A stretch of 64,000 nt of DNA. Origin: Octopus vulgaris. Lineage: Eukaryota. The notes under the pieces are model-generated. The model was given only the letters and a program-made list of their open reading frames with translations. It had not been told where the DNA came from and did no database searches. Positions within the stretch are counted from its first letter, which is position 1, and every line of letters begins with the position of its first letter. The stretch spans positions 79,856,001 to 79,920,000 of the forward strand of contig OX597821.1 of the NCBI GenBank assembly GCA_951406725.2. The letters are read 5' to 3'. Of this stretch, positions 1,851-59,878 are shown piece by piece. Position numbers and translations under genes: made by a program.

Positions 1851-2018
1851 AAAGAATATATATAAGCATATATACATACGTATATGTACATACTTACATC
1901 TATACGTATATATCAGGTGGTGCTATTAAGTTAGACATGGCCTGGACCAATCTTTGGTCCAAACATATTTAAGTTTATCTAAGTTTATACTTATATGCAT
2001 ATATTTGTCTGTGTGCTC

Positions 2019-2064
<46 letters not shown>

Positions 2065-4216
2065 CGTTTTGTTTTGAGAAGTCTGCTAACTTCATCCAAA
2101 ATACTTGAAAACTTTCTCCTTCTGTGACCAATGAGTAAATGTAAATCTACAGGCATTGTATGTATATCTCGAACATAGATTCATCGTTTAGAGTATAATC
2201 TACGTGCTATGTTATTGCTTTTATGTTTAAACTAAAAGAATGGCCTTCTTTTACATGAAGTACGACTAACTGTATAATCCGAATAAGTTTCGCTTCTGTT
2301 GAGTGCATCTTTAAGCCAACGTGTGCGGTAAAAGTGGCATGGTGTGACGGATTATGTCAGAAATGACTATAGTTAGATCGATCACAGTAAATAGTGAATG
2401 GTGGTTGCAATGATGAATTAGGCAAGGGGCGAGGTAGAGGAAGAAGGTAAGAGGGAGAAGAGGAGATAGAAAGAAAGAAAGCGAGAAACAGCATGTGTCT
2501 TATGAATAAGAGGGATCTAGGTTGAAAGGTTGAGAACAGCCAATAAAAGAGAGAAGTTCGTATCTGCCGTGTAGACAAAATGAAATAATTTATAAAGGAA
2601 TGTTGCCGCTATGGGACCATTTCGGCAGACAAAAATTTGAAGGGAAGTTTGAGTCAGCATGTGACTCAACAGAGCAGATACACAACTCTTAAGTGCCGTT
2701 TCCCTATCAAAACTACAGCTAGAGCAAGATAAAAGAAAGGCATATACATTATGGCATATCTATACAATTCTAGATAGAAGGTTTTTGCATCTATATACGT
2801 TTAATAATGTAGACTGTCGACAGGGAGATATGTAAATGGCTAGATGTTGTGAATAAGCTATTAGAGCCTTGTTACTGCAGTTTTGTGTAAGCACTCGATT
2901 CCGTTCGTTTCCATACAATTACATTACCGCCCCGTCATCACAACAACCACTCAAACACCACCAGTACCACGACGACCACGATGACCACGGCCACCATCGT
3001 CACCAATACTATTATTACCAATAGAAAAACATTGAATCTCTATGTGGCTGCTGGACTTGCGAAAATTAACAACTAAATCTCCCTCGTATCACACCCTTTT
3101 GTCTTCAATAAAATCTACGACACTTTGGATAATTACGTAGTCTTAATTGGTCATATCTGGAATGCATTTGATCAATGAATATACAGGATTACTGCTGATC
3201 TGGGGGGGGGGGGGTAAATAACAACGGCACAGCTGCAGTTGCACCAGAAATAACAGCAGGAACAGCAGCATTTGCAAAAGCTCAACAACGAGTCAACGAT
3301 GAAACACTACGCGGTCATTCTATCTGCTAGAAACAATAGCCAAATATATACATATACACAAACACATGCAAAACCATACACAAATATATATTCATTAGCA
3401 ACATATACATGTGTGTGTGTATGTGTGTGTACACACATATTCATACACATAAACGCACATATATACACATATATCTATACGTGGAAATAAAAAAATAAAC
3501 ATGCAAGCGTGTATACACACCTGCTTACATATATATATACAGGTTGACAAATTAGGTGTTACAAAAGAGGTAAACCGCAATATAGACGGAAATAAAGGAC
3601 TATATTTATATAAATGATTCACACACTGGACTTCAAGTTTGCGTGTCAGCGATACGATGATCCTCGACACAGAAACTTGAAGTCCTGTGTGTGAGCAGCC
3701 ATAACTTATCATTCAATATATATATTGAACAACCGAATAACCAGTTAGATGATTTGTTTATAGTCATCAAATGTTGTGTACACGTAAGCTCACTCCCTCC
3801 ATCAATTCGACATTACAGGTGCACCGTGCGTCACGTGTCAGATAACGAAATGATCGCAGAACAGCGTGGAATGAAGTGCTTTGCTCAAGAACGCAACGCA
3901 ACACCCGGTCTGGGAATCGAACCTACGATCTCGCAATCATGAGTGCAACACCTTAACCACTAAACCATGCGCCTTCCTATACATACATACATACATACAT
4001 ACATACATAAATGTGTGTGTGTGTGTGTTTTCGGTGTTTACAAATAACATGGCAAAACTAAATAAATAGTTACCAGGGTAGCAAAAATTCCCACAAGTAC
4101 CAAGGATGTAACAGCCTACTTCTAGTGGTAGAAACTCCAGGTTTAGGTGAAATGTTTTTTCAATAATATAGATAAATAAATAAGTGGAGTTAAATGCAGG
4201 TGTTATTTAAATCTTT

Positions 4217-4310
4217 TTACTTTCGACATATGTTTCGAAGAAAACATTGATGTTATTCCAGAAGGAATAAAATAGTGTAAAACAATTCAATCTTCTCATC
4301 AGGAAAAGAA
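4217..4310 (-). ncRNA. Type I hammerhead ribozyme, Penelope-associated type
   Basis: Minus strand reads UUUC-CUGAUGA-GAAGA...UCUUC-GAAA-CAUAU-GUC-GAAA: intact core, 5-bp stem II base, palindromic stem III (ACAUAUGU), GUC triplet, 4-bp stem I. Confidence 0.75.
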
Positions 4311-4566
4311 AGAAACCAAACACATCAATAAGATATTTCAACAGAATGTGATGACTGCGTATATGATGAGAAGAAGGCTAGCAAGTTTTTTAAAAAACCG
4401 TTCGTAGATACTACGTCAAAAGTAGTTTGTAGAAAGGGAAGGAGGAAGAGAAAGAAAGAAAGAAATTGATAGAAAACAAATAGTAGAGAGATATAGAGCG
4501 AAAGGTGAATTAGAATAAAGCTTAAAGACATGGAAGTAGATATATTTAGTGGAAGTTTAACTCCAT

Positions 4567-4636
<70 letters not shown>

Positions 4637-5359
4637 GCCTATCTGTATGCATGTATGTACATGCATAAATATGTGGGGGCATCTACATGCATACATACAA
4701 ATGTTGATGCATATATATGTGCGTACGTGCATGCATGTGTCAATGTATGCAGGTATGTATACAGTTAGCTGCATATTGATATGTGCAGGTACATAAACAT
4801 ACACAGGCGCGCGCATACACACTCATATCGGATCCGTTCATAGTTCACGCCTTCGCTACTCAGTGATCCTCGATCAAATTATACAAGTTGAACTGAACTG
4901 TAAACAAGTGATGTATTTAAAGGATATCTGTTACACAGATTCTTATTTCTCTATACTGGTTAGTTGGTTGTTAGTTTCTCACGTAATATGGCTACTGATA
5001 GCGTTGATTACTTCAGGGTAAGGGAAAGTGCTCATACCTGAGTAGTGGTTATAAAAGAATAGCTGTACTGCAGTATTTAGAACATATCGAATGTCTAAGA
5101 GCAGTAATTATTCAGAAGGAATTGTCTCTTAACATGGTATATAGTACTTACAATCATTTGTCCGGCGGATTTCGAATACCTCTGTGGAGCAAAGCCTGCA
5201 GCTATGGATGAGGTGGCTACGTCCATAATATTTCATTTCAATGGTTTTCAAAAGAATCAGGGCGATGAAGGAATGTTTTCGTTGTCATTTGATATGAATT
5301 GGTGTAAATATTAACATAGGTGTGCATATTTTCAGCACAACCGACCACATAGTGCACAC

Positions 5360-5411
<52 letters not shown>

Positions 5412-6274
5412 TGTGTGTGTGTGTATACGCATTATATATACAAATGTATACAAATTATATATATATATATATAAATTAAATTAGAGATAAAACCACTATT
5501 ACGCAAATCAAACAGTGAAAAACATAAACCAGAACATAAAAATAAAAATATAATATACAAAATATATAAAATATAAAATTTAAAAATTTAAATTATTTAA
5601 ATTTAAAATTAAAATTATTAATTTATATTTATAATTTTTAAAAATATATATATAACTATCAAAAAGTATTAAAAAGTTTTATATACATAAATACAGATAT
5701 ATACACTTTGTATATATACATTATGTATACATATTTATATATAGAACACATACACACACATATATAAATTAACCCAATAAATATGTGATTCATAACATTT
5801 GTTCTCATGATTGAGTGGTGTTGCTGGCGATGATAATTCTCTCTATGAATGCAGACAGACGTAGAGAGAGAGAGTGTGTGTGAAAGCGCTGTCGAAGGCG
5901 GGGAGGGCGGGGAGATATAGGACGCTGTGAAACGACGTTATAAAGACAAAGTGAAGGGAAGGGAGTTAGACGCTGTGAAACGACGTTATATAAAGAAAGT
6001 GAAAGGAAGGGAGGAAAGAGAGTGAGTGATGGAGGAAGACAGATATATAAAAGAATGAGAGTAGACTTGTCAAAGTGCGCTTTTGGCCCTAACAACGACA
6101 CCTTTTAAGATGTGGATTTCTAACCTAGCCCACTCGCAACCTCACCTCATTTTACATGTCCCTGTAAATTTTGGAGTCAATCCGACGGGATCTAGTGGCC
6201 TTTAACCTGTTCTCAATGCCAAAACCAGACAAACAAACAAACTTTTCGCATTTCAGAATTATAATATATATATA

Positions 6275-6486
6275 TTGTAGTAACCCCCCCACAAAAAAAA
6301 GAACAGAAAAAGAACAAACACAAAAAAAAACAACAACGCGAAGACGTGGTACACGTAAAGTATTAGCAGACGCTCAGGGAAGGAAAGATAGTTTAACGTT
6401 TCGACCAACGCTCTTCAGAAACAGAGGAAAGTCCAATAGAAAGGAAGGCGGAAGAAGAAAATCGCCAACGATTCACATGTGGTTAC
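6275..6486 (-). mobile_element. Short Penelope-LTR-like repeat (family E) carrying a minimal hammerhead
   Basis: Similar to 20345-20440, 28943-29146 and 32526-32712; bounded by TA-rich sequence. Confidence 0.65.
6391..6422 (-). ncRNA. Minimal type I hammerhead ribozyme
   Basis: GUUU-CUGAAGA-GCGUUGGUC-GAAA-C-GUU-AAAC: stem I GUUU/AAAC, about 1-bp stem II, palindromic ACGU stem III as in dimer-cleaving PLE hammerheads. Confidence 0.6.
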
Positions 6487-6539
6487 AATATATATGTATA
6501 TTTACATGTATGTGAATATATAAGTATGTATGTATGTGT

Positions 6540-6581
<42 letters not shown>

Positions 6582-6947
6582 AAATGTGCATATCTTACGT
6601 CGATATAAGTAGAAGAAAGATGTAAACCGCAAGAAAACCGTAGGAAAAAAGCATTCTTTAATAAAAAGAAATATCCTAAGCGGCATTTGTACAGCCCGGC
6701 TACAGATTCTCCCTTGTCACTCAGGTAGTGAACAAGTGATTGGTCTACTGGAAACCTGTAACGAATAATGCTAATATTCACTATTTGCACTATAAAAAAA
6801 AAAGACCAAAGATAATGCAGTCACAAAGTTTCAGGTTCAATCTCACCGTGCAGCACCTTGGGCAAGTGACTTCTTGCATATCCCCGGGCTAACCAATGCT
6901 TTATCAATAGATTTGATAGGCGGAAACTGTGTGGAAGTCCGTCGTAT

Positions 6948-6989
<42 letters not shown>

Positions 6990-8020
6990 TATTCATGTAT
7001 TTATTTGTTTGTGTATTTATTTCTTCTTCTTTCAGAAATTAAATAAATTATATAATGTTAACCTCACTCAGTACATCGAGTGTTTCTCTTTCTGGTACAA
7101 ATGTTTGCCATATTTCAACTCGCTGTGTTTTTCATTAAATATTTTTCTTCGTTATTTTCTTAATTAAACATCATGTAATAATTGTGCAGATACGCAAACA
7201 TATGCACTTAGACTTCCCCCCCACACACACACCTACACATGTATATGTATATAGCTATATAATATTACATTACCTATATACAAACATTCGTAAACGGTAC
7301 AATTTTTTAGATACACCCATGTTTATAAACTCCCACAGAAAATGGTACATATTTTAAACTCAGTATAATTATTATGGTATTTAAAAAAACATGCTAAATT
7401 ATATAATGAACTCTAAACTTTATAAGAACGTGGCAAATGAAATATTGTAATATTTATTCCATTCTTAAAAGCACTGGAGATATTCTTTAAGTGGTCTTGA
7501 TAGGGAATCCCGATAGTGAGATGGCGAATTGGCTTGGCTAAAGACGTTATACTTGTACCTCTATCATCCACCCCCGTCATCTTACCCCACCGCTAAATGT
7601 TATAACATATTATCTAACAAAAACTGACAAAATTGTGATAATTGAACGACAACCTCTCACGAGCTGGGCAGAATAAATTATCCCAAGAAAATAAATTAGC
7701 TGGAGAGAATAAATTACTTGGCAGGAATAAATTAGCTGGAGAGAATAAATTAGCCGAAGATAATAATTTAAATAACAATTAGCTGCTGCAGTATCTATGT
7801 CTGTGTGTAGCGTTACGTTCTAATTTATTCTACTTGAATATATCTTCAAGTTCCTTTGCTGAGAAGGCTCTCGTAATTAACCATGAAAAATATTTGCTCC
7901 GTCTACAGTGATGCGTTCGTTATGTAGAACGGATTGATAACTTATTCTTATTCCATTATCAGAAAAATATCCCTTCATAATTTCATTACCAATTACTGGT
8001 ATATTGGTAGAATGCGGTTA

Positions 8021-8475
8021 TGGAGGCGCAATGGCCCAGTGGATAGGGCAGTGGACTAGCGGTCGTAGGATCGCGGTTTCGATTCCCAGACTGGACATTG
8101 TGAGTGTTTATTGAGCGAAAACACCTAAAGCTCCACGAGGCTCCGGCAGGGGTTGGTGGTGAACCCTGCTACACTCTTTCACTACAACTTTCTCTCACTC
8201 TTTCTTTCTGTTTCTGTTGTACCTGTATTTCAGTTAAGGGTACACGTGTCTGTGGAGTGCTTTGCTACTTGCACGTTAATAAATGAGCTGCGACGTCACT
8301 GGTGCCAAGATGTATCGGCCTTTCTCTTTCCCTTGGATAACATCGGTGGTGTGGAGAGGGGAATCTGGTATGCGTGGGCGACTGCTGGTCTTCCATAAAC
8401 AACCTTGCCCAGACTTGTGCCTCGGAGGGTAACTTTCTAGGTACAATCCCATGGTCATTCATGACCGAAGGGGGT
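8021..8475 (+). mobile_element. Chimeric SINE: family B head and body joined to family C tail
   Basis: tRNA-like A box (TGGCCCAGTGG) and B box (GTTTCGATTCC); 8021-8280 matches 28524-28907, 8281-8475 matches 15100-15300. Confidence 0.8.
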
Positions 8476-8715
8476 AGAATACGGTTGTGGGACATGTGTG
8501 ATGGCTGAATGAAAATAGCCCTGCGAAACAGGGCATCGAACATGAGTAAAATAAAAACATTACTGGCGAGCTAATTGAAACAAAAAAAAAAAGACAAATT
8601 TAAAAAATACAATTAACCCTCGTCATAACATATAGTTATCTAGGGAGTGCCGTCATCCTATTGGAGCATCACTGAAAAACTAGACTGAAATAGTGATTCA
8701 ATGGAAAATTGATTT

Positions 8716-8929
8716 CACATCTTGGCACAAGGCCAGTAATTTTAGAGAAAGGATCAAGTCTTCATTGATAAAATATGTGCCAGTTGAGCATTGATCATAT
8801 TTTATCGACCCTGAAAGTATAAAAGTCAAAGTAGACCGCGGTGGAATTTGAATTCAGAACGTAAAGACAGATGAAAAGCCATTAAGTGTTTGGCCCAGTT
8901 TGCTGACAATTCTGCCAGCTCGCCGCCTT
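8716..8929 (-). mobile_element. SINE family D, diverged monomer
   Basis: Reverse-complement similarity to 62720-63332. Confidence 0.7.
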
Positions 8930-9057
8930 GATTCTAGAGAATATTACATTCGAGTAGTGTCCCATTGATACCAATATAATTCCAAGGCCTTGTTAAACTA
9001 TAGTATTCAGTGACATATAAATATGAAATTTGCTGACCTACATACTTTATATAGGCC

Positions 9058-9211
<154 letters not shown>

Positions 9212-9214
9212 ACG

Positions 9215-9610
9215 ATTTCAAATTTTTGCCACAAGGACAGCTTGGGGGAGGGGATTAAGTCGATTACATCGACCCCAGTGCGTAACTGGTACTTATTCAA
9301 TCGATCCCGTAAGGATGGAAAGCAAAGTCGAACGCATGGAAATTTGAACTCGGAACGTAGCGACGAGCGAAATACCCATTTCTTTACTACTCACAAGGGG
9401 CTAAACACAGAGAGGAAAAAACAAGGACAGACAAACAGATTAAGTCGATTATATCGACCCCAGTGCGTAACTGGTACTTATTTAATCGACCCCGAAAGGA
9501 TGAAAGGCAAAGTCGACCTCGGCGGAATTTGAACTCAGAACGTAGCGGCAGACGAAATACCGCTAGGCATTTCGCCCGGCATGCTAAAGGTTCTGCCTGC
9601 TCACTGCTTT
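9215..9610 (-). mobile_element. SINE family D, dimeric
   Basis: Two copies of the GACCCCAGTGCGTAACTGGTACTTA...TTTGAACTC module. Confidence 0.8.
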
Positions 9611-9614
9611 AATA

Positions 9615-9705
<91 letters not shown>

Positions 9706-9724
9706 TAAAAATAACAATAAAAAA

Positions 9725-10046
9725 AAACTGGTGGGAACACAAACCACCCCCAGTGCTTGAAAATGACCACTTTCACTCCTCTAGAATTTCACCATTCAAA
9801 CTGACAGAAATATAGATGCAAATAGGCCAGACATCATATTGAAAAACTTCAAACAAAGAACATGCCTCCTCATTGATATGACTGTCCCAATCGATATAAA
9901 CGTATCTGTCAAGACCTACCAAAAACTGAGCAATTAGAAAGATCTTGAAATAGAAATCAGCAAAATGTGGAACCTGAAGACTAAAACAATACCTGTTGTC
10001 ATAGGTGCCCTGGGAATGATAGCAAAAGGGGCTGATTGCTACTTAA
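9725..10046 (+). mobile_element. R4/Dong-type non-LTR retrotransposon fragment (restriction-like endonuclease), pseudogenised
   Basis: Translates to WWEHKPPPVLEN / IQTDRNIDANRPDIILK...LLIDMTVP...KL..*KDLEIEISKMWNLKTKTIPVVIGALG (PD..D..K motif); frameshift and stop; follows (TAA)n. Confidence 0.8.
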
Positions 10047-10143
10047 AGTCGACCTCAACGGAATTTGAACTCAGAACGTAGAGACAGACGAAATGCCGCT
10101 AAACATTTCGTCCAGCATGCTAACGATTCTGCCAATAACAATA

Positions 10144-10176
<33 letters not shown>

Positions 10177-10492
10177 AAAAAAAAACTTACTCATATATGT
10201 CATATAAGGCATGTATCTATATGATGCCATGAAATATGATTCAATGACTTATAACCTAAGAAATTCAATTATCTATACCTTTATAATTCAATGGCCTATA
10301 CACATGTACAATGCCGATACAATTTTATGATATAATACCCAATACTTATTCAATTTCATAGATAAATATCCCAACAGCATTCATTGAATTGCTAGGCAGA
10401 CCGTAATCAACCCATGGATGGCTCCTAAAGGGAAGAGCATCATTAATTCCCAAACGCAAAATCACCAGACAACATTCATACATATATCTCTA

Positions 10493-11515: not shown

Positions 11516-11695
11516 GATACACATCCCTAAATTCATATGTATAGCAGTGTAATTCTGAGTGCCATGTGAAACAGACAGATATACAACAACCATTACACAC
11601 AAAACTGATTACAGAGAGCATGAACGTTACAACTTCCCAACGTCTAATGTCTGACGCTATTTTTCATTTTTAGAAAAAATATACTTACATATACA

Positions 11696-12205
11696 TACAT
11701 ATGCTACTGGGAAAGACTCAAGAGATTAAAACTCTATTCCTTAGAGCGTAGGCGAGAAAGATATGCCATAATATACATCTGGAAGATCCTGGAAGGACTT
11801 GTCCCAAACTTTGGCATCGAGAGTTACACAAATGCCAGAACTGGACGCCACTGCGTGGTGCCAAGGACTTCAAATTTGCCATCAAGATGTAGGACAAGAT
11901 ACTGTGATAGCCTGGGCTTCAGAGGCCCACAGCTCTTCAATATCCTCCCGAAGAACCTGAGGGACCTGCATGGGGTGGATGCAGATGTCTTTAAAGTAGG
12001 ACTGGATCTCTTCCTGTCAGGTGTCCCGGATGAACCAACTTCACGGCAGGAGGTGCAGATGAGGGCAGCTGCATCGAACTCTCTCATGCACCAAATGGCA
12101 GTTGCTAAAAAGCATTCGTGAAGTAAAATCATGTAGCAACACCAAATGGCGGTGCCCCAGCATGGCCACAGCTCGTGAGCTGAAACTAGATAAAATAAAA
12201 AAGAA
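11696..12205 (+). mobile_element. 3' end of a CR1-group LINE (family L-b): ORF2 C-terminus and 3' UTR
   Basis: Open frame 11702-12121: CYWERLKRLKLYSLERRRERYAIIYIWKILEGLVPN...GPQLFNILPKNLR...FKVGLDLFLSGVPDEP; short UTR and A-rich tail. Confidence 0.85.
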
Positions 12206-19722: not shown

Positions 19723-19835
19723 TAGCCGAAATTGCGAGGATGATCCGGTTCTTGACTGAAGATTAGAGGCTTCGAATCGTCTATTTGAATGTTTTGCGTT
19801 CTTGTCCCTTTTTGTATTTTTGTATATATTTTTTA
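19723..19835 (+). mobile_element. Solo fragment of the terminal repeat of the 852-bp-unit element
   Basis: Reverse-complement similarity to 35725-35860; flanked by microsatellites. Confidence 0.85.
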
Positions 19836-19869
19836 TACATACATATATATATATATATGCATGAGTGTG

Positions 19870-20344: not shown

Positions 20345-20440
20345 GCAAAGAGTGTAGGCTCGAAACGTAAAAGACTTTCTCAATTTCACGAGCGACACCT
20401 ACTTGTTGTTCAAACGCCTGTATTCATCTTTTTTTTTCTG
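20345..20440 (+). mobile_element. Family E fragment, hammerhead core degenerate
   Basis: AGAGTGTAGGCTCGAAACGTAAAAGAC matches the other copies. Confidence 0.6.
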
Positions 20441-20596: not shown

Positions 20597-21884
20597 CATG
20601 TGTCAGACGAAATAATGGAAACGCCTAGCATCATAGCATCATAATTTTGAAATATCTATAAAACTGTCAAAAGCTTGTTTATTTATATCTTTTTTATTTA
20701 TTATTAGTGTTGCTTAATATGTTTTGCTAGAATTGTTGATTCTTTTCAGATATCATCAGAAAAAAGTAATTAAAATTCATTAAAATGACAAATCTATCGG
20801 ATTTTCAAAGACGTCAAATTGTTGGTGCTCGTATAGCAGGCTGTAGCAGAATGAAAACAGCCGAAATGTTTGGCGTATCAAGAAGTACTGTCTTGAAAGC
20901 CTTTGAGAAAGAGGGAAACCTCCTCGTCGAAACAAAACGCCGGAAAGAAACCAAACTTTCAGACAGGGACCGTCGGACTCTTACGCGAATTGTTAGAAAT
21001 GATTACAAAAGTACAGCTCCCAAAATTACTATAGAGCTTAATGACCACCTCGAGAACCCAATTACCAAAAAAAAAAGAAAAAAAATCTGTTCACTGGGAG
21101 CTGCAGAAAGCCAGATTTCACGGGAGGGCTGCAATCAGAAAACCACTACTTTCAAAAACAAACGTTGCAAAGCGTTTAGATGGAGTAAAAACCTACGGGA
21201 TTGGTCCCTAGATCAGTGGAAGAATGTTATTTTCCCGGACGAGTCATCTTTTACCTTATTTCCGACCATCGGCCAGTATACATGTGGAGACAGCCAAAAG
21301 AAGCATTTGACCCAGACTGTCTCCTTCCAACTGTCAAACATAGAGGAGGATCTGTGATGAGCTGGTGGTGGTGGTGGTGGTGGGGTCTATATCTTGGAAA
21401 TCTGTTGGTCCAATGGATTCTCTTCATGTTAGAATTAATAGTCAAGACTATTTAAGCATTTTATCTGATCAAATTCATACTATGGTTGCGGAACTGTTTC
21501 CGGAGGGAAACGCAATCTTTCAGTATAATAATGTACCAATTCACACAGCTAAAGTTGTTACTGAATGGCACGAGAAACATTCTAGTGGAGTTGAACATCT
21601 TATCTGGCCACCACAGTCCCCAGAGCTCAATATTATTGAACATTTATGGTGCATTTTAGAAAAACGAGTAAGGAGTCGATAACCTCCACCATCATTCTTA
21701 CAAGAACTGGAGACTGTTTTAGCTGAAGAATTGACAAATATTCCTTTGGAAACAATTCAAACTTTGTACGAGTTCATACCTCGTAGAATTCAAGCTGTAA
21801 TTACTGCCTAAGGCGGTCCTACCCGATATCAAAATAAATTTCTTTGAAATTTTAAGGTGTTTCCATTATTTTGTCCACCTGCTG
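20597..21884 (+). mobile_element. Tc1-family DNA transposon, full length, decayed
   Basis: Imperfect TIRs of about 30 bp (CA..GAC.AAATAATGGAAAC.CCT) flanked by TA; transposase inside. Confidence 0.92.
20785..21831 (+). pseudogene. Tc1 transposase pseudogene
   Basis: HTH N-terminus, WKNVIFPDESSF, PTVKHRGGSVM, IFQYNNVPIH (normally FQDDNAP.H), WPPQSPELNIIEHLW; several frameshifts and stops. Confidence 0.92.
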
Positions 21885-22775: not shown

Positions 22776-25664
22776 TCATGTAAAGAGTTCAGGCCACTTG
22801 AGGTCAAGGGAGGCTTTGAACAAAGCGGTCGTCGGCATCTTCACCATCTCGTCTGGCAGCTTGTTCCACGGATCCGCAACCCGGACGGAGAAAGCTCCTC
22901 TCCTTCGATTGAGATGAAATCGTCGCAGGTAGAGCTTTTCGGAATGACCCCGCAGCCGACGCTCTGGAGCAGGAGTGAAGAACAGCTCTTTCGAGAAGTT
23001 ACACTTTCCGCTTATGATGTTGTGGGCGAGAATGAGATCACCACGGCGGCGGCGTTTTTCTAGAGAATAAACGTCGAGCGTCCTTAGCCTTTCTTCATAG
23101 GACAAATTTTGAGACCATGAACCATGCGGGTAGCCAGCTTCTGGTCTCTTTCGAGATGCTGTATGTCTTTGAGGAGATAAGGAGAAGAGGCTTGAATCCC
23201 GTACTCCAATATGGGTCTCACCAGCGTGACATAGAGTGGTAGGAATATGGCTGCTGTGAGCATTCCGAATGACAGTCGAATCAAGAACAGAATTCCGCGT
23301 GCTTTTTTGGCAGCATGGACGCACTGGGCCGAAGGCGAAAAGGAGGAATCCACCAAGACACCCATGTCCTTTACCTGATCGGTCCTCTCCAGCAGCAGAC
23401 GACCCGGCTCAAAATCAAGTTGAGTTGTAGGAGGAGAGCCAACAGGCATATGACAGCACTTTGACACGTTCAGACACAGGTCCCATTCGTTAGACCACCT
23501 CCAAATTTGGTGGAGGCATCGACGAAGATCCTCTATATCACCGCGAGGAGCGACCAGTTTGACATCGTCGGCAAATAGAAGGGTGTGTTGCGTGAGGTCG
23601 TCAGGCAAGTCATTTATGAAGACTAAGAACAATAAGGGCCCAAGCACTGAACCTTGAGGCACGCCACTGCTCGCACTGGAGACGTCGGACCGCGAGCCAT
23701 TAACTTGGACTTGGAAGGAGCGATCTGAGAGGAAGGCACCAACCCATCGTACAATATCCGGATGGAAACTATATGCTTGAAGCTTGACAAGTAATAGGCG
23801 GTGGTTTATCGAGTCAAAAGCTTTGGCAAAGTCCAATAAAACGATGTCAACAGCATCACTATCATCGAGGATGCGCGTCACCAATTCTTCCATTACCAGT
23901 AAGATGGTCAAGCATGATCTCTTCGGCACGAAGCCGTGTTGGGATTCAGAGATAGAGGCTGTGTTTTGGAGGTGGAGCATCATACTTTTCTTAAGGATGG
24001 TTTCGAACATCTTGCTGATTATTGATGTAAGGGAAACCGGTCGGTAGTTAAGCGAGTCTTCGCGGCTCCCTTTCTGGAAAATTGGGCAGATTATCGCTGT
24101 TCTCCAGTCCGCAGGTATAACAACCCGTCGCCAATGACATATTGAATAGACGTGTTAAGGGCTCGCAGATGACCGGAGCCAACGCTTTGATAACCCGTGG
24201 GTGTATGCCGTCAGGGCCGTGACCCTTGTTGACATCGAGACCTTGAATAACACGTTTGACTTCGTCCCGCGTGATGACCAATCGAAACATTGGAGGTACC
24301 GATCTATCAAATGGAGTGGGTTCACGACCATCATCTTGTTTGAAAATAGTTGAAAAAGCCTCGGCAAATAATTGACTCTGTTGATAAGGGTCCTCAATCG
24401 ATACGCCTGTTGAGTCTACCAACGTTGCAATCTGGTTGTTCAAGCGGGAATTCCGTTGGACATGGGCAAAGAAGGTTTTTGGATTGCTACTGGCATTTGC
24501 CGCGATTTTGTATTCATAACTGAAGCGTTCTTCCTTTTCAATTTTCACGGCTCGGTCTCGTTGAGTTTTGTACACCTCGAAAGCTGCAGTCGAATCCAGA
24601 TTTTTGAATTCAGCACAAGCAATATCTCTGAGTCAAAGTTCTCGTTTAACCTTCTTCGTCACCCAGGGCTTGTGTTTCTTCTTCTTGGGAAGCCCAACGG
24701 GAACTGCCTGGTCAGTCAACCAGATTACATATGCTTTGAGGGATGACCATAGTTCATCAACTGAGGACAACGTCATCAGGGATCGCCAGTCCAGAAGCGC
24801 GGAAGCCTCGGTTAGAATTTCAAGATTAATTGCAGAGAAGACTCTACGTGGCAGCGAAGTAGTCGTGGGCGTAGAAAAAGTTGTGTGCATGACGAACTTC
24901 AGGACCGCATGATCACTCTTGGCAAGAGGGGCGCACACAGATACGTCTGACACTGATCTTGGATAGCGGGAGAATACCAGATCCAGCATAGATGGCTGCT
25001 GCCCAGACCGATGCCTTGTCGGATATTCAACATGTTGCGATAGAAAACAATCTTCAGCCACGTCAAGAAGGGCCTGGCCGAACCAGGAAGATGATGTACA
25101 AATTGATGCGGGCCAATCGATCGTGGGTGCGTTGAAGTCTCCTAATATCAAACAGTCATGCGAAGCTGAAACGAATCTTATCGCTTCGAGTAAATGAGCA
25201 TCGTCCTGGGGGTCGGCAAGAGGCGGCCTGTAGACAGCTAACACGGGCAGGCAAAACTCGGATAGGCGCAGCTTGCAATAGACGGCATCGAATTTTGTTG
25301 TAGGTTGAGCATTAGTGGGTAGAATACCGCTGGACGGTTTGTGATCAGATTTAACATACACAGCAACACCTCCACCTCGCCTTTTTTCTCTGTCACATCT
25401 GAAGAGGACGTAGCCCTGTAGGTAGGTTTCTGAGTCCTTTACTGCTGGAGTCAGCCAAGTCTCGGTGATAGCTATCACATCAGGGCAGTCACGTATGGCC
25501 AGTGTAAATAGTTCGCTGAACTTTGGAAATAAGGAGCACGAGTTGGTATAGACGATGCTGAGCTGTGAAGTTTGAGGGGCGGGAGTTGGGGAACAAGCAG
25601 AATAAGGGGTATCAGAGATAGCATCGTTGACGGGGGTATCTACTTTACTTCGATTCGCCCTCAA
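22776..25664 (-). pseudogene. LINE ORF2 (APE endonuclease and reverse transcriptase) with three frameshifts near 24640, 24120 and 23105
   Basis: IAITETW, LILGDFN, LDLVF, SDH; GPDGIHP, NYRPVSLTS, LDFAKAFD, GVPQGSVLGP, LFADD; CR1-type C-terminus SYEERL...SLEKRRRRGDLI...RGH...WNKLP. Confidence 0.93.
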
Positions 25665-26830
25665 TTCACTTTCACTGTCAGCACTACAGCATGCGACCAG
25701 AGGTAGGACTTGATTATTTGTCCATCTTGGATGCGTAAACCCTTCTCTCCCATCTGTTTTCTCATCTTTAGTTCGGATATTAGGTTTCTCCGGCGAATTC
25801 TTTCTCTCAGTGAGTATTCCTCGCGGAAACCCATATTGGGGTTCTCCCAGGCATGCGTCTGAGCTCTGTTCAGAAAGGTTGAAGCCTCCTGATCGGAAGA
25901 AAAGATTACCCTTATTGGGCGTGGTCTAGTATCTGAGGTTGAGTTCGCTTGGAATCTTCCTAGCCGAGCGATCTTATGGATACTGACATTTTCGTTGACA
26001 GAGAACAATTCTCCAACTAAAATGGAAACAAAATTAATGTCTTCTTTTAGGCGGTTTATGCCTGTATCACAGGTGGATTCAGCTTTACCATAAATGATTG
26101 CTGATCTTGAGTGGGCAAAATGTTCTCTACTACGGGCTGCGGTATTCGATTCTTCGTTGAATGATTTCGAAAGGGTGGTTTCATAGCCATCAGACTTATG
26201 TCGGCCTGTGGGTTCGATCGGAATGGGTTTAGTGGTCATAACTTTCCCGCCTGGTTTGGAACTGCACTGCCTCTTCTTCGGTTTGGGGGAGCACCACTCC
26301 CCAGATGGACTCACATCGAGATCGTTCAGAATTGGTTGAGAAATGGCATTAATGGGAAGGACAAGTGAGGGAGAATCCAAACAGATTTTATCGTGATCAG
26401 GTTTCATAGCTAAATCTGCCCCACTGGAGTTTTGACTACGTTTCTTCTTTTGGGGAGAACAACGGTCTTCAGGTGGGTTTGAGTCTACGCTCCTCAAATT
26501 AGGTTGGGGAACCTCCGGGACCGAAAAGGCAGATGAGGAAGAATCCGCACAGGAACGATCATGTGCAGAAACGACCGCCGGTTCCTTCGCCTTCTTTGGC
26601 CGCTTCGATTTTGTTCCCTTCGGCTTGGTCGTCTCCAGGGAAGAAATCAAGGGTGGCTCTGCGTCAATAGGAGACTGTTTATTCAGTAAAAGAGCAACAA
26701 CAGACTTTAGGTGCTCTACCTCTTGTTTGAGCAACAGCAACTGCTCGTTGAGCTGACTGTTGGTAGGACCATCATCCTGATGAGAAGCCCTTCTTGCAGA
26801 TCTCAGTTTTGATCTGTAGGTAGCTGACAT
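25661..26830 (-). CDS. LINE ORF1 protein, 389 aa, intact
   Basis: N-terminal coiled coil; C-terminal IIYGKAES...RLGR...RPRPIRVIF...R..RR.LISELK.R signature of CR1/Jockey-group ORF1. Confidence 0.85.
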   Translation of the reverse strand: MSATYRSKLRSARRASHQDDGPTNSQLNEQLLLLKQEVEHLKSVVALLLNKQSPIDAEPPLISSLETTKPKGTKSKRPKKAKEPAVVSAHDRSCADSSSSAFSVPEVPQPNLRSVDSNPPEDRCSPQKKKRSQNSSGADLAMKPDHDKICLDSPSLVLPINAISQPILNDLDVSPSGEWCSPKPKKRQCSSKPGGKVMTTKPIPIEPTGRHKSDGYETTLSKSFNEESNTAARSREHFAHSRSAIIYGKAESTCDTGINRLKEDINFVSILVGELFSVNENVSIHKIARLGRFQANSTSDTRPRPIRVIFSSDQEASTFLNRAQTHAWENPNMGFREEYSLRERIRRRNLISELKMRKQMGEKGLRIQDGQIIKSYLWSHAVVLTVKVN

Positions 26831-26953
26831 GATAGATGGTTGACCAAAAATAATCTTCTATGGGCTCTAGGACAAATCTGAGTGTGTGTGTGTACGTGTG
26901 TGTGCGCGTGCGTGCGAGCGTGTGTATGTGTGCACATATAAATACATACCTAC

Positions 26954-27118: not shown

Positions 27119-27279
27119 ATATCTATCTATCTATGTGATTATGTACCGACATGTTTGTACCAGCGAGCGTATATTTATATATACGTATATAAAGATGTAT
27201 CTATTTTTGCATACAGATATATATTTTGTATATATTTAAATCCACGCACATTAATGTAGCATTACTTAACAATATTAAA

Positions 27280-27495
27280 TGTAAGTTCCAGACAACCATC
27301 GAAAAGACAAACAGTTTTATAAACGAAGAATCTAATGCTATCCGAAAAGATATGACTGCAGATATAAGCGTCGTGTGTCCAACTAAACGCGAAGCATTCT
27401 CACCACTGAAAGATGACAAGGCCGTCTTCATAAACAGGCCAAGATATAGGTTAATAATTCCCGCTAGAGCAGAGTCAGTGCAAGCCAGCAAGACA
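27280..27495 (+). pseudogene. Penelope-like element RT fragment, N-terminal part
   Basis: KREAFSPLKDDKAVFINRPRYRLIIPARAESVQASK resembles the PLE motif EAFITLKDHK.NF...P..RLINPAKS.IG..SK (recalled, not searched). Confidence 0.65.
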
Positions 27496-27527
27496 TTCTC
27501 AGAGATATCAATGTTCTTTCTTTCTAT

Positions 27528-28275
27528 GGCGATGAGCTGGCAGAATCCTTAACACGGAGGGTAAAATTCTTCGCAGCATTTCATCCGCCGAGGTCGACTT
27601 TACATTTCCTTTCGTGGCCAATAAAATAGGAACTCACTAAGCCCTAGGAGCAATGAAATCGATTAGTTTTGCCCCACCCCCACTCATTCCCGAAATTGAT
27701 GTCATTGTGCTAATATTCTTTCTTACTAATTTTGGCACTCCGTCGGTTACGATGACGAGGGTTCCAGTTGATCTGATCAACGGAACAGCCTGCTCGTGAA
27801 ATTAACGTGCAAGTGGTTAAGTACTCCACAGACAAGTGTACCCATAACGTAGTTTTCTGGGAGATTCAGCGTGACACAGTGAGACAAAGGCTGGCTCTTT
27901 CAGGGTTGGGGTTATCCGATTACATAGACCCCAGTATTTGTCTGGTACTTATCCTACCAACCGCAAAAGGCAAAGTTGATCATTGGAGAATTCAAACTTT
28001 GAGCATAAAGAGAGGAACATATGTTGTTAAGCATTTTGTCCGACGCTCTAACGACTCTGCTAGCTTACCGACTTTAATAGCTTCAAATTTTGTCACAAGA
28101 CGAGAAATTCTTGGGGAAATGGATAAATCTATTTACATTACCGATCAACTGGTACTTATGCAATTGCCCACGAAAGGCATGTAAAATAAAGATGACATCG
28201 GCAAAATTTTAACTCAGAACGTAAAGAGTTGGAAGAAATACCGCTAAGCATTTTTCCAACGCTCTATCGATTCTG
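27528..28275. mobile_element. Cluster of diverged SINE D fragments and a SINE B tail (27733-27900, minus)
   Basis: Similarity to intact copies in the window. Confidence 0.65.
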
Positions 28276-35724: not shown

Positions 35725-36714
35725 TATATATTATATGTAGAAAAATACAAACTGGGACAAGAACGTAAAACATTTAGAAGACGATACAAAAAACGCGGAC
35801 GGGACATTCGAAGCCTTCAATCTTCAGTCAAGAACCGGATCATCCTAGCAATTTCGGCTGATTAATCTTGAGATCGCTCCGATCCGGCCAGCCCCAAGGA
35901 AAAACTAAGCTACGAGCATTAGATTTCTTGGAAAAAGGATCGAATGTATACGAAACAGGGACAGAAAAACGGACGATGCCACACGAATATAAAATGCAAA
36001 AAACAATAATGGTAAAAACAGGACAAAAACAGCGGGTGTCTTACGACTAATAGATAGTACAACTTAGTTTAGCTGGCGTATTTGGAAAAAAATGCCTTCT
36101 TCGGCAGACGAAGACAACGATCTTCTCATGGCGCTGGTTAGAAGCCGAAAGGCTGGTTGACCAGCGGTCATGTGAGAGGAGAAGAGAGAGAAAAAAAGGG
36201 GGCAAAGGAATCAAAGAGAGAGAGAAAAAGAGGGACGAAGGCAACAAAGGGGGGAGAAGTGAGAGAAAGAAGGAATTAAAGAGGGGAGAAGAAAGAGAGC
36301 GTGCCAAGGATTGGCTTGGCGACAGAATCAGTGAGTGCAAAGTGAAAAAGACAGAGAAATGTGAGAGAGTGGGGGAAGAGTAGACCAAAGAATCAGAGGC
36401 AAGAAAGGAGAAAAGGAGGAGAAGTAGAGAGAGTGAGAGAGAAAGAGACAGATCAAAGTAGAGTGCAAAGTGTGAAAGGCAGAGAAATGTATGAGAGAGA
36501 GACAGTGTTATAGAGTCGTACCAAATTTAAAGGAATATGTACTTACATAAGGCCAAAGAGGGTACGGACGTCGCTATATATATTATATGTAGAAAAATAC
36601 AAAATGGGACAAGAACGTAAAACATTTAGAAGACGATACAAAAAACACGGACGGGACATTCGAAGCCTTCAATCTTCAGTCAAGAACCGGATCATCCTAG
36701 CAATTTCGGCTGAT
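35725..36714 (-). mobile_element. Non-coding retrozyme/PLE-like element, 852-bp unit with 138-bp direct terminal repeats
   Basis: 35725-35862 and 36577-36714 are nearly identical (2 mismatches seen); no credible ORF; ribozyme-like motif spans the repeat boundary. Confidence 0.85.
35812..35888 (-). ncRNA. Candidate non-circularly permuted hammerhead ribozyme
   Basis: Minus strand has AGCGAU-C-UCAAGA, then AGCC-GAAA-UUGCU, then UCUUGA-CUGAAGA..GGCU; stems I, II and III can all form. Confidence 0.6.
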
Positions 36715-44010: not shown

Positions 44011-44526
44011 AATAGCAGGCACAACTGTTATGTGTGTGTGTGTGTGTGTGCGTGTGTGTGTGTATGTGTGTGCGTGTGTGTGTGTATGTATGTGTGTGCG
44101 TGTGTGTGTGTGTATTGGTTCGTGGTATAATTCAATAAAGAGACCACTCCATCTCTCTCCCTCTCCCTCTCCCTCTCTCCGTCCCTCTCTCTCTCCCTCT
44201 CCCCCTCTCTCTCCCTATATATATATATAAAAACAGAGTTAAGGAAGTTAATAATTGCTTATTATTAATAACAAATTCTTCTTCGCAAAGATGACCAATT
44301 TGTTGTTAATAATAGACAACCATTAACTTCCTTATCTCCATTTTCTTTTCTACTTTAAAATGGATATAAACTAAATGCTTAATATATACCTATTGTAAAA
44401 TTCCGCCGAGGTCGACTTTGCCTTTTATCCTTTCGGGGTTGATAAATTAAGTACCAGTTGCGTACTGGAGCCGAGCTAATCGATTGGCCCCCTCCCCGAA
44501 AAATTTCGGGCCTTGTGCCTAGAGTA

Positions 44527-45270
44527 GATCACCACGGCGTCGTCGTTTTTCTAGAGAATAAAGGTCGAGCGTCTTCAGCCTTTCTTCATAAGACAAATGC
44601 TTGAGACCAAGAACCATGCGGGTAGCCAGCTTATGGACTCTTTCGAGATGATGTATGTCTTTGAGGAGATAAGGAGAAGAGGCTTGAATCCCGTACTCCA
44701 ATATAGGTCTCACCAGCGTGACATAGAGCGGTAGGAATATGGCTGCTGTGAGCATTCCGAATGACCATTGAATCAAGAACAGAATTCCGCGTGCTTTGTT
44801 GGCAGCATGGACGCACTGGACCGAAGGCGAAAAGGAGGAATCCACCAAGATACCCATGTCCTTTACCTGATCGGTCCTCTCCAGCAGCAGACGACCCGGC
44901 TCAAAATCAAGTTGAGTTGCAGGAGGAGAGCCAACAGGCAAATGACAGCACTTTGACACGTTCAGACACAGGTCCCATTCGTTAGACCATCTCCAAACTT
45001 GGTGGAGGCATCGACGAAGATCATCTATATCACCGCGAGGAGCGACCAGTTTGACATCATCGGCAAATAGAAGGATGTGTTGCGTGAGGTCCTCGGGCAA
45101 GTCATTTATGAAGATTAAAGACAATAAGGGCCCAAGCACTGAACCTTGAGGCACGCCACTGCTCGTATTGGAGACGTCAGACAGCGAACCATTAACTTGG
45201 ACTTTGAAGGAGCGATCTGAGAGGAAGGCACCAACCCATCGTGCAATATCCGGATGGAAACTATATGCTT
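44527..45270 (-). mobile_element. Internal RT fragment of LINE family L-a, abutting a SINE D tail (44398-44528)
   Basis: Highly similar to 23036-23778; PQGSVLGP, LFADD, SYEERL; in frame where the long copy is frameshifted. Confidence 0.93.
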
Positions 45271-46526
45271 GGAAACATAGAACGTATGATAATGAAGTTT
45301 AATTTGTGCAAAGTGTTTCAAGCTGGACTTACGGATTAAGTACCGGCTTTTGAAACTGCCCTCATAGTTTACACACGTAACCTAAGGAATTGTAAATCTC
45401 ATGGGTCTGAGAGGCAACTTGTCCTAAATTATCGAAAGGACATAAATCAGTATTTTGATAGTTTCCGTTATCTTACTTGCTATTTAGGTTAAAGGATTTC
45501 GGATGACTGGCAGAAGATTTTCAAGGTCTTACGCATGTTAGGGTAGTCTTGAGCGCCCACTATTTGTGATGATATCCTCTGCCTAAATAGTAACGTAGCA
45601 CTAGCTGGTACTTAGATTTTACCAGTTAAATCGTTGGGAGTAATTGTGTTATGTGCGTAAATGCTCCCAGATTTAGAAAGTGCATGGCTATATTTATTTT
45701 CACATTGTCTCTCAATGGAGGATTGAACGAAACCATACACACTTCCACACATAAATACACACACACATACATACTGACAGACACAAACACGAATGCACAC
45801 ACACACACGCGCGCGCGCATAGGTACATACACATATCTGGAAAAACAATGAGTCATTATATTATAATCAAGGCAATGTTGTAGAAAAACTAGTTTAAAAA
45901 TTTGGCTAACATTTCTGGAAAAGATGACAGAAACATCATTAAATTACAATGAAACTAGTGTAAAAAGTAAAACTTAAAAAATTGAACTAGTTGTTATTGT
46001 TGTTTATTAACCACCAAATTCGTGCTGATTGAGGAAACATATGAACAAAGATATTCAAGCCATGATTATCATGTCTTACTTTCTGACTGCATATGTACAG
46101 TGATATTACCCAATATCTTTTTAAGACGGGATTTAGCTGCTATATATATAGAAAGTACGGTTGTTACCTTGGATTTATATCGTTAGTTGTTGTTGTCTTG
46201 TTTAGCCCCATGTCTGGCCCCATATAATAGACAAAGGAGTTCTATCAGTGAATTTCCAGTTATTTTCTTTAACTATAAATCCACTTTCCATTCAACAAAG
46301 TAAGATGTTATCTATGGGAGATTTGGCTGCTACTTCTAGCAGCCTGAGCATTGCATATAGGGTTCCCCGTTTGGATTGTGCTAGGTAGCATTCGAGCTAG
46401 TGGTAAATGACTCTCAAAGTAATTAGAAGCTATAAACCAGTAAATGCAAAATAATTACATATATATATTAGAAAAAAGCATTAAAATAAAAAATAATAAA
46501 AACAATAATATCGACTAAAAAGTCAT

Positions 46527-59454: not shown

Positions 59455-59878
59455 AGGCACAGGAGTGACTGTATGGTAAGTAGCTTGCTTACTAATAACG
59501 TGGTTGCGGGTTCAGTCCCACTGCGTGATACCTTGGGCAAGTGCCTTCTACTATAGCCTTAGGCCGACCAAAGCCTTGTGAGTGGATTTGATAGACGGAA
59601 ACTGTAAGAAGTCCGTCGTATATATGTATGTATGGATGTATATATATATATATAAATGTGTGTGTGTGTGTGTTTGTGTGTGTGTATGCTTATGTGTCTG
59701 TATTTGTCCCCTCGACATCACTTGACAACCGATGCTAGTGTGTTTACGTCCCCGTAACTTAGCGGTTCGGCAAAAGAGACCGATAGAATAAGTACTAGGC
59801 TTTCAAAGAATAGGTCCTGAGGTCGATTTGCGCGCGACTAAAGGCGGTACACCAGCATGGCCGCAGTCAAATGATTGT
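59455..59878 (+). mobile_element. SINE family A, full length
   Basis: Family match. Confidence 0.9.

Follow-up and report, generated by a model that had tools for sequence, protein, structure and literature searches.

The insertion at positions 35725 to 36714 (minus strand) of the 64-kb window, the whole stretch of octopus DNA analysed here, raises the question of how a retroelement without a protein of its own comes to begin a few nucleotides after the position at which a predicted ribozyme would cut, and whether it was copied from a linear or from a circular RNA. Microsatellites abound in the window, which is animal DNA, and the insertion, flanked on both sides by a (TA)n-type microsatellite, is a partial tandem of the pseudo-LTR type, formed on the minus strand by an upstream repeat of 138 bp (36577 to 36714), a body of 714 bp and a downstream repeat of 138 bp (35725 to 35862). 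The direct repeats are offset by 852 bp and are identical at 136 of 138 positions (98.6%), the two mismatches being 35752/36604 and 35795/36647, and the insertion amounts to 1.16 units (990/852), in agreement with the first-pass annotation. The downstream repeat is the 3' end of the element, its TA-rich terminus merging into the (TA)n flank, and the upstream repeat, or pseudo-LTR, carries the GAAA and CUGAAGA blocks only, without the cleavage site. The 5' end of the insertion, 36714, lies at +10 after the predicted cut, with 9 nt missing relative to the cut-equivalent position (36724|36723), which is the distance claimed before. Since two bases (AT) are common to the element and the (TA)n flank, the true start may be anywhere from +10 to +12. 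A solo 3' copy on the plus strand (19724 to 19837) contains the 3' repeat only and shows 76% identity to it overall and 94% across the first 54 nt; both copies in the window sit in a (TA)n-type microsatellite. The earlier statement that this solo copy starts near the same place holds, at +13, with the position corrected from 19723 to 19724.

The absence of an ORF was also correctly noted: no ATG-started ORF longer than 40 aa is found in the element on either strand, and two frames running from stop to stop (159 and 109 aa), which derive from its low-complexity tract, matched no family in a Pfam search. The RT and GIY-YIG ORF of an autonomous Penelope-like element (PLE) is absent from the 35725-36714 insertion. 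A remnant of an endonuclease C-terminus was suspected at 36060-36167 and was dropped after a protein search with 0 matches. The 5' part of the body (36175 to 36546, minus strand) opens with GTAAGT, which resembles a splice donor and lies at 36546, some 30 nt from the start of the body, and continues with a tract of 331 nt that is 85% pyrimidine and holds one AG. Retention of a 5' intron is known in PLEs, and the segment 36546-36175 may be such a retained intron; no matching joint was present among the contig joints listed.

The complete predicted hammerhead occupies 35821 to 35893 on the minus strand and consists of four blocks, in the order stem II 5' strand, cleavage block, GAAA block and CUGAnGA block. 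The stem II 5' strand (position 10.1 onward, 35888 to 35893) is located upstream of the cleavage block and forms 6 bp with 35861-35856, the first pair being G10.1-C11.1. Next comes the 5' strand of a helix X (35881 to 35887), which forms 7 bp with 35841-35835 and joins stems I and II at their distal ends. The cleavage block (35866 to 35878) comprises the stem III 3' strand (35878-35873), C35872 as H17 and the stem I 5' strand (35871-35866), with the predicted cut after AUC at 35872|35871. After a short linker, the GAAA block (35847 to 35861) contains the stem II 3' strand (35861-35856), GAAA (35855-35852) and the stem III 5' strand (35852-35847), and the 3' strand of helix X then leads to the CUGAnGA block (35821 to 35833), made of the stem I 3' strand (35833-35828) and CUGAAGA (35827-35821). 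Each of the stems I, II and III is thus 6 bp long, the A15.1-U16.1 pair is present, and CUGAnGA, GAAA and NUH are all found with the three stems placed around them. A purpose-built descriptor with stems of 4/4/4 bp passes this site and no other on both strands of the window, and shuffles in which the core motifs were kept fixed reached 4/4/4 in 202 of 20,000 cases and 6/6/6 in 2 of 20,000, counting the three stems. The Rfam hammerhead models gave no match on the element, neither at the gathering score nor at E values up to 10, as expected of a rearranged hammerhead. A minimal type I reading that uses the bases after CUGAAGA was rejected, there being no cleavage block downstream; the locus holds one complete ribozyme, and its hammerhead is not type I. 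The permuted ribozyme of the first-pass annotation is kept in the form of a predicted rearranged hammerhead, to which the upstream stem II strand and a link to Naiad elements are added here.

Six block orders of hammerheads are described in PMC10085705 (Eckert et al. 2023), the available text of which assumes that CUGAnGA is joined to its stem II strand. In that text type SGC is validated, with examples from metatranscriptomes, type CSG comes from just two metagenome sequences, and no non-circularly permuted order is reported from the genome of a known organism except for one bacterial GCS candidate. The window ribozyme resembles type SGC of that paper in the S-G-C order of its blocks, the short linker between stems I and II, the helix linking both stems and the presence of multiple pseudoknots. 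It differs in that its stem II strand stands 5' of the cleavage block, while in the type SGC described there it comes after CUGAnGA, and in that it belongs to an animal retroelement and not to a metatranscriptome. In our model the block order is outside the six described, with the stem II strand upstream and not after CUGAAGA, and the topology is that of a type SGC reopened between A9 and N10.1.

The same predicted wiring was found in an unrelated sequence family. A scan of metagenome contigs with a loose pattern covered 12 of 64 parts and gave 119 loci out of an estimated total of about 690 stretches, and 50 of the 119 belong to one family without BLAST similarity to the window element. When the window was compared with this related family (copies L088 for stems I and II, L107 for stem III and L044 for helix X), all 25 compared pairs were standard in both and 14 of them had changed on both sides, four bases of the stem II 3' strand being fixed by the scan pattern. 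Inside the related family, in the 20 of 50 copies reaching furthest upstream, 91% of the cells are paired, with one double change, and the covariation is not above that of shuffles; such a lack of excess is expected of decaying copies, but lends no support. Compensatory changes are therefore found between the two families and not in excess within the second one. The descriptor passes 6 of the 50 family loci, none of the 69 other metagenome loci and none of 50 viral loci that match this pattern, and no viral locus among these folds as a hammerhead. The exact motif of the window had no match in the metagenomes scanned, and three viral matches were discarded as chance. By eye, the metagenome family closely resembles Naiad_Amil, and the sequence past the 3' end of two of its copies (L050 and L120) resembles the 5' start of Amil.

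Naiads are described in PMC8557442 (Craig et al. 2021) as forming partial tandems, being truncated at the 5' end and targeting (TA)n, and the portion of that paper available to us states that they are without canonical hammerheads, some being left as 'HHR_core' or 'HHR_half_core'. We inspected by eye the last 300 nt or so of 53 of the 54 consensus sequences in its supplement. Eight of these 53 3' ends (Obim, Ovul, Esco, Amil, Anas, Aacu, 2_Movir and Bfor) show the wiring of the window with different stems, the matches being imperfect in Esco (one stem II mismatch), Aacu (decayed) and Bfor (a stem I of 2 bp). Six nematode ends (1, 2, 3_Nbra, Hcon, Hpol and Asuum; File S5) read by eye as clean type CSG hammerheads with a helix that connects stem I to stem II, and the remaining 39 hold other motifs, partial cores or nothing in the stretch inspected. 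The window element is like the Naiads of PMC8557442 in its partial tandem with a pseudo-LTR, its 5' truncation and its (TA)n target, and unlike them in having no ORF and a unit of 852 nt as against 3.4-4.4 kb. Its stem sequences are unlike those of any Naiad end inspected in that supplement, so that the wiring is common to them and the sequence is not. The open-access literature searched held no account of this wiring or of Naiads with permuted hammerheads.

The 5' ends of copies provide a record of where the RNA may have been cut. In the related family 49 ends were counted, L090 having been left out because it nearly duplicates L055, and L116 because it scored below the family score. Twenty-four of the 49 start at +1 to +7 and two at -1/-2, three start at -3 to -30 (one of them cut by the contig end) and 20 beyond (four of them cut). 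The 30 nt preceding -2 contain 2 ends over 629 nt at risk, which gives P ~1e-10 against the upstream end rate. These statistics refer to the related family and not to that of the window, and the pattern forces the copies to reach +7, which leaves ends further downstream unseen. Two related copies that were found in flanks, free of the pattern bias, start at +14 and +15, similarly to the two ends read directly in the window family (+10 and +13), and in L050, itself a short partial tandem, the upstream repeat begins at +6. Short 3' pieces make up the majority of the related copies. Since an RT moving 3' to 5' would open every helix before it reached +10, ends at +1 to +7 would need an RNA end and not a stall. 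It is thus likely, on the basis of these ends, that the predicted ribozyme sets the start of new copies.

The window family itself is widespread in sequencing runs, the element being wholly or partly present in 20 of the 24 runs listed (nine studies, four organism labels, none of them listed as RNA), with 1,938 to 10,389 contigs per run matching the 852-bp unit in the four runs examined. No contig spanning the whole unit was present among those listed for these four runs, which all consist of contigs and for which no pile-ups of contig beginnings or ends were listed either. Contigs of divergent sequence in X1 (record 8) and X9 (record 32) run across the tandem junction at 36577, so that the duplication occurs beyond this locus as well, which settles in favour of the first-pass annotation a point on which it could have failed. 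(TA)n loose ends occur at 36584 and 36048 among the 24 of 1297 loose ends listed. One contig of X9, possibly an RNA run, apparently begins at the cut and is one base off the uncut sequence, and is therefore ambiguous. Joints that appeared to go back by 852 merely reflect a reference opened inside the repeat and were rejected. Summed contig depth drops 1.6-2.3-fold across the bin of the cut and by a factor of about 150 as far as the start of the body in X1, figures which were excluded as evidence because contig depth cannot rank the parts of the element. Variants of the window family at 35875 and 35881 preserve the model pairs. Two other common variants, one at the terminal position of stem III (35847, 53-89% of depth) and one in helix X (35885, 41-78% of depth), break one model pair each, and compensating partner changes for them are absent from the 40 of 88 entries listed. 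In X9, two variant pieces that rest on one and two contigs share the same changed linker and have gained a U on one strand of stem III and an A on the other, which counts in favour of the model.

With its partial tandem and pseudo-LTR, a predicted ribozyme near the 3' end and its insertion in (TA)n, this high-copy, protein-free element is likely to be a non-autonomous Naiad-type Penelope-like retroelement; the earlier view of a non-autonomous, Penelope-like and (TA)n-targeting family, with a rearranged hammerhead and 5' ends just after the predicted cut, is supported. We further consider it fairly probable that it was copied from a linear RNA and owes its 5' end to the predicted self-cleavage. 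From the repeats, the pairings and the copy ends, which are read in the sequence, we infer the following steps. The GIY-YIG/RT protein of a Naiad would nick (TA)n and prime on the TA-rich 3' end of the RNA. The predicted four-block hammerhead would cut the element RNA, and the borrowed RT would run off the cut end, with the loss of a few bases at the 5' junction, assisted by the TA-like linker. Cut 3' fragments would give short solo copies such as that at 19724, and uncut RNAs would give longer, variably truncated ones. The 1.16-mer could arise either from a tandem linear precursor cleaved at the upstream ribozyme only, or through template switching, the RT leaving the 5' end of an uncut RNA and continuing on a cut 3' fragment. 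As to the autonomous partner, four motifs of the element had no match among the Naiad sequences in the supplement of PMC8557442, and a protein search had none.

A circular template, as put forward in the first-pass annotation, is the alternative that survives best, and we regard it as unlikely. In this scheme two cuts in a tandem parent would release the 852-nt monomer, and a Penelope-like RT would travel round the ligated molecule for more than one unit, which would account for a partial tandem with its 5' end near the cut; such a route is proposed for PLE tandems in PMC4209133, as far as the part available goes, and the available part of a preprint (Li et al. 2026, 10.64898/2026.07.22.740005) argues that animal retrozymes are PLE derivatives. 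The two differences per 138 bp are likewise compatible with repeats that were identical at insertion. Animal non-LTR retrozymes, in the accessible portions of PMC7229834 (Cervera and de la Pena 2020) and of Li et al. (10.64898/2026.07.22.740005), carry type I hammerheads in tandem and give self-paired circles, mostly of 170-400 nt. The window element is like them in being non-coding, hammerhead-bearing, repeated and probably mobilised by a PLE. Retrozymes have at least two consecutive complete units of type I, however, whereas a single complete ribozyme, not of type I, is present here. Furthermore, the circles described in PMC7229834 are highly self-paired, unlike the window unit, which folds poorly: its MFE as a circle is -127.7 kcal/mol as compared with -129.1 +/- 6.0 kcal/mol for 40 dinucleotide shuffles, and 41% of it is U. 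The many short 3' copies are another difference from these retrozymes, and the predominance of such pieces in the related family speaks against a circle. A ligated circle already copied into a hybrid would offer no reason for the second pass to stop at the junction. Moreover, at site 36604, where the repeats differ, both alleles are common in all four runs (37-42% of depth), and repeats carrying two common family alleles fit two templates better than one circle; being a single site, it is a weak hint. The single complete ribozyme, the shuffle-level fold and the allele difference together lead us to favour a linear template over a circle of about 852 nt. Reads across 35872/35871, which had been suggested as a signature of the circle, cannot separate both cases, since the sequence is the same in the circle and in the genome.

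A second alternative, which we judge to be distinctly improbable, is that of an ordinary type SGC ribozyme in which stem II is formed with 35815-35812, on the minus strand, the upstream pairing being incidental or an alternative state. This rival partner can form 4 bp, which are preserved in the solo copy, and a wobble-rich equivalent is seen by eye in Naiad_Obim/Ovul. It begins 5 nt past CUGAAGA, while the stem II strand of type SGC lies within 1-2 nt of that motif, so that an insertion of 5 nt has to be admitted; an extra base between positions 9 and 10.1 is frequent in PLE hammerheads according to the part of PMC4209133 available. The upstream helix is longer and stronger than the downstream rival (-10.0 vs -6.2 kcal/mol). 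In the related family the roughly 33 nt inspected downstream of CUGAnGA offer at most 1 bp, and by eye no downstream partner is found in Amil, Bfor, 2_Movir or Esco, whereas the upstream one is present in all of them. Finally, a fold that does not cleave, with ends due to RT stalling or to microhomology of the TA linker and with the 1.16-mer made by two insertions in one (TA)n run, seems to us very improbable, because, even though the ends pile up at +4..+7 and later near the TA-like linker and not exactly at +1, and the TA-rich 3' end of the element could itself serve as a target, the ends break off sharply at the predicted cut and hardly any fall immediately upstream of it, unrelated families preserve the core bases, NUH and G10.1-C11.1, and the tandem junction seen here recurs in divergent contigs from two runs.

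We incline, with some reserve, to a broader model built on these predicted folds and copy ends, in which a seventh way of wiring a hammerhead, where the chain is interrupted inside the core between A9 and N10.1 and stem II comes from upstream, would be an active ribozyme in Naiads from ctenophores to cephalopods, its cut setting the 5' ends of copies and pseudo-LTRs without a circle. If this is true, CUGAnGA and stem II are no longer inseparable, and non-circularly permuted hammerheads are placed in animal genomes. Together with the nematode CSG forms, it would mean that Naiads do carry hammerheads, in non-circularly permuted forms that standard descriptors missed, which would explain why they were scored as lacking them. 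The role of hammerheads in Penelope-like elements and the origin of pseudo-LTRs would become testable questions, as the copy ends would be a fossil record of cleavage and the linear and circular models predict different repeat alleles and multimers.

Several observations were made on the way. Naiad_Ptep, from the supplement of PMC8557442, has an S-G-C order with stems I and III of 7 bp and a hairpin just before GAAA in place of the stem II partner, and is possibly another variant of wiring. The Chlamys consensus preceding Chlamys-8_cSch in the same material matches the window at 17 of 18 nt around CUGAAGA, this stretch lying about as far from the 3' end in both, which may be chance. Naiad-1_Movir, Mgal, Bpla, Mphi, Scon, Mmer and several bivalve and hemichordate ends carry other conserved 3' motifs. 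Some of these we take to resemble twister ribozymes, and the ends inspected suggest that Naiads swap ribozyme types. In the window, a motif with canonical order, CUGAAGA...CGAAAC, lies at 6418 (minus strand), and a similar partial one at about 20345-20375 (plus strand), both like minimal PLE hammerheads; the Rfam hammerhead search of 6330-6500 gave no match. A frame of 119 aa at 27193-27552 (plus strand) resembles by eye a decayed piece of a Hydra-type PLE RT and has no Pfam match, and frameshifted LINE-like endonuclease/RT frames together with a Tc1/mariner-like transposase remnant are seen by eye at 22776-26857 and 44519-45298 (minus strand) and at 11648-12121 and 20770-21682 (plus strand). 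An abundant SINE-like repeat has copies at 1306, 19942, 29753, 36872, 38440 and 59755; its core presumably resembles a twister ribozyme, the Rfam twister search of 59700-59860 giving no match, and the microsatellites that hold both ribozyme copies adjoin this repeat.
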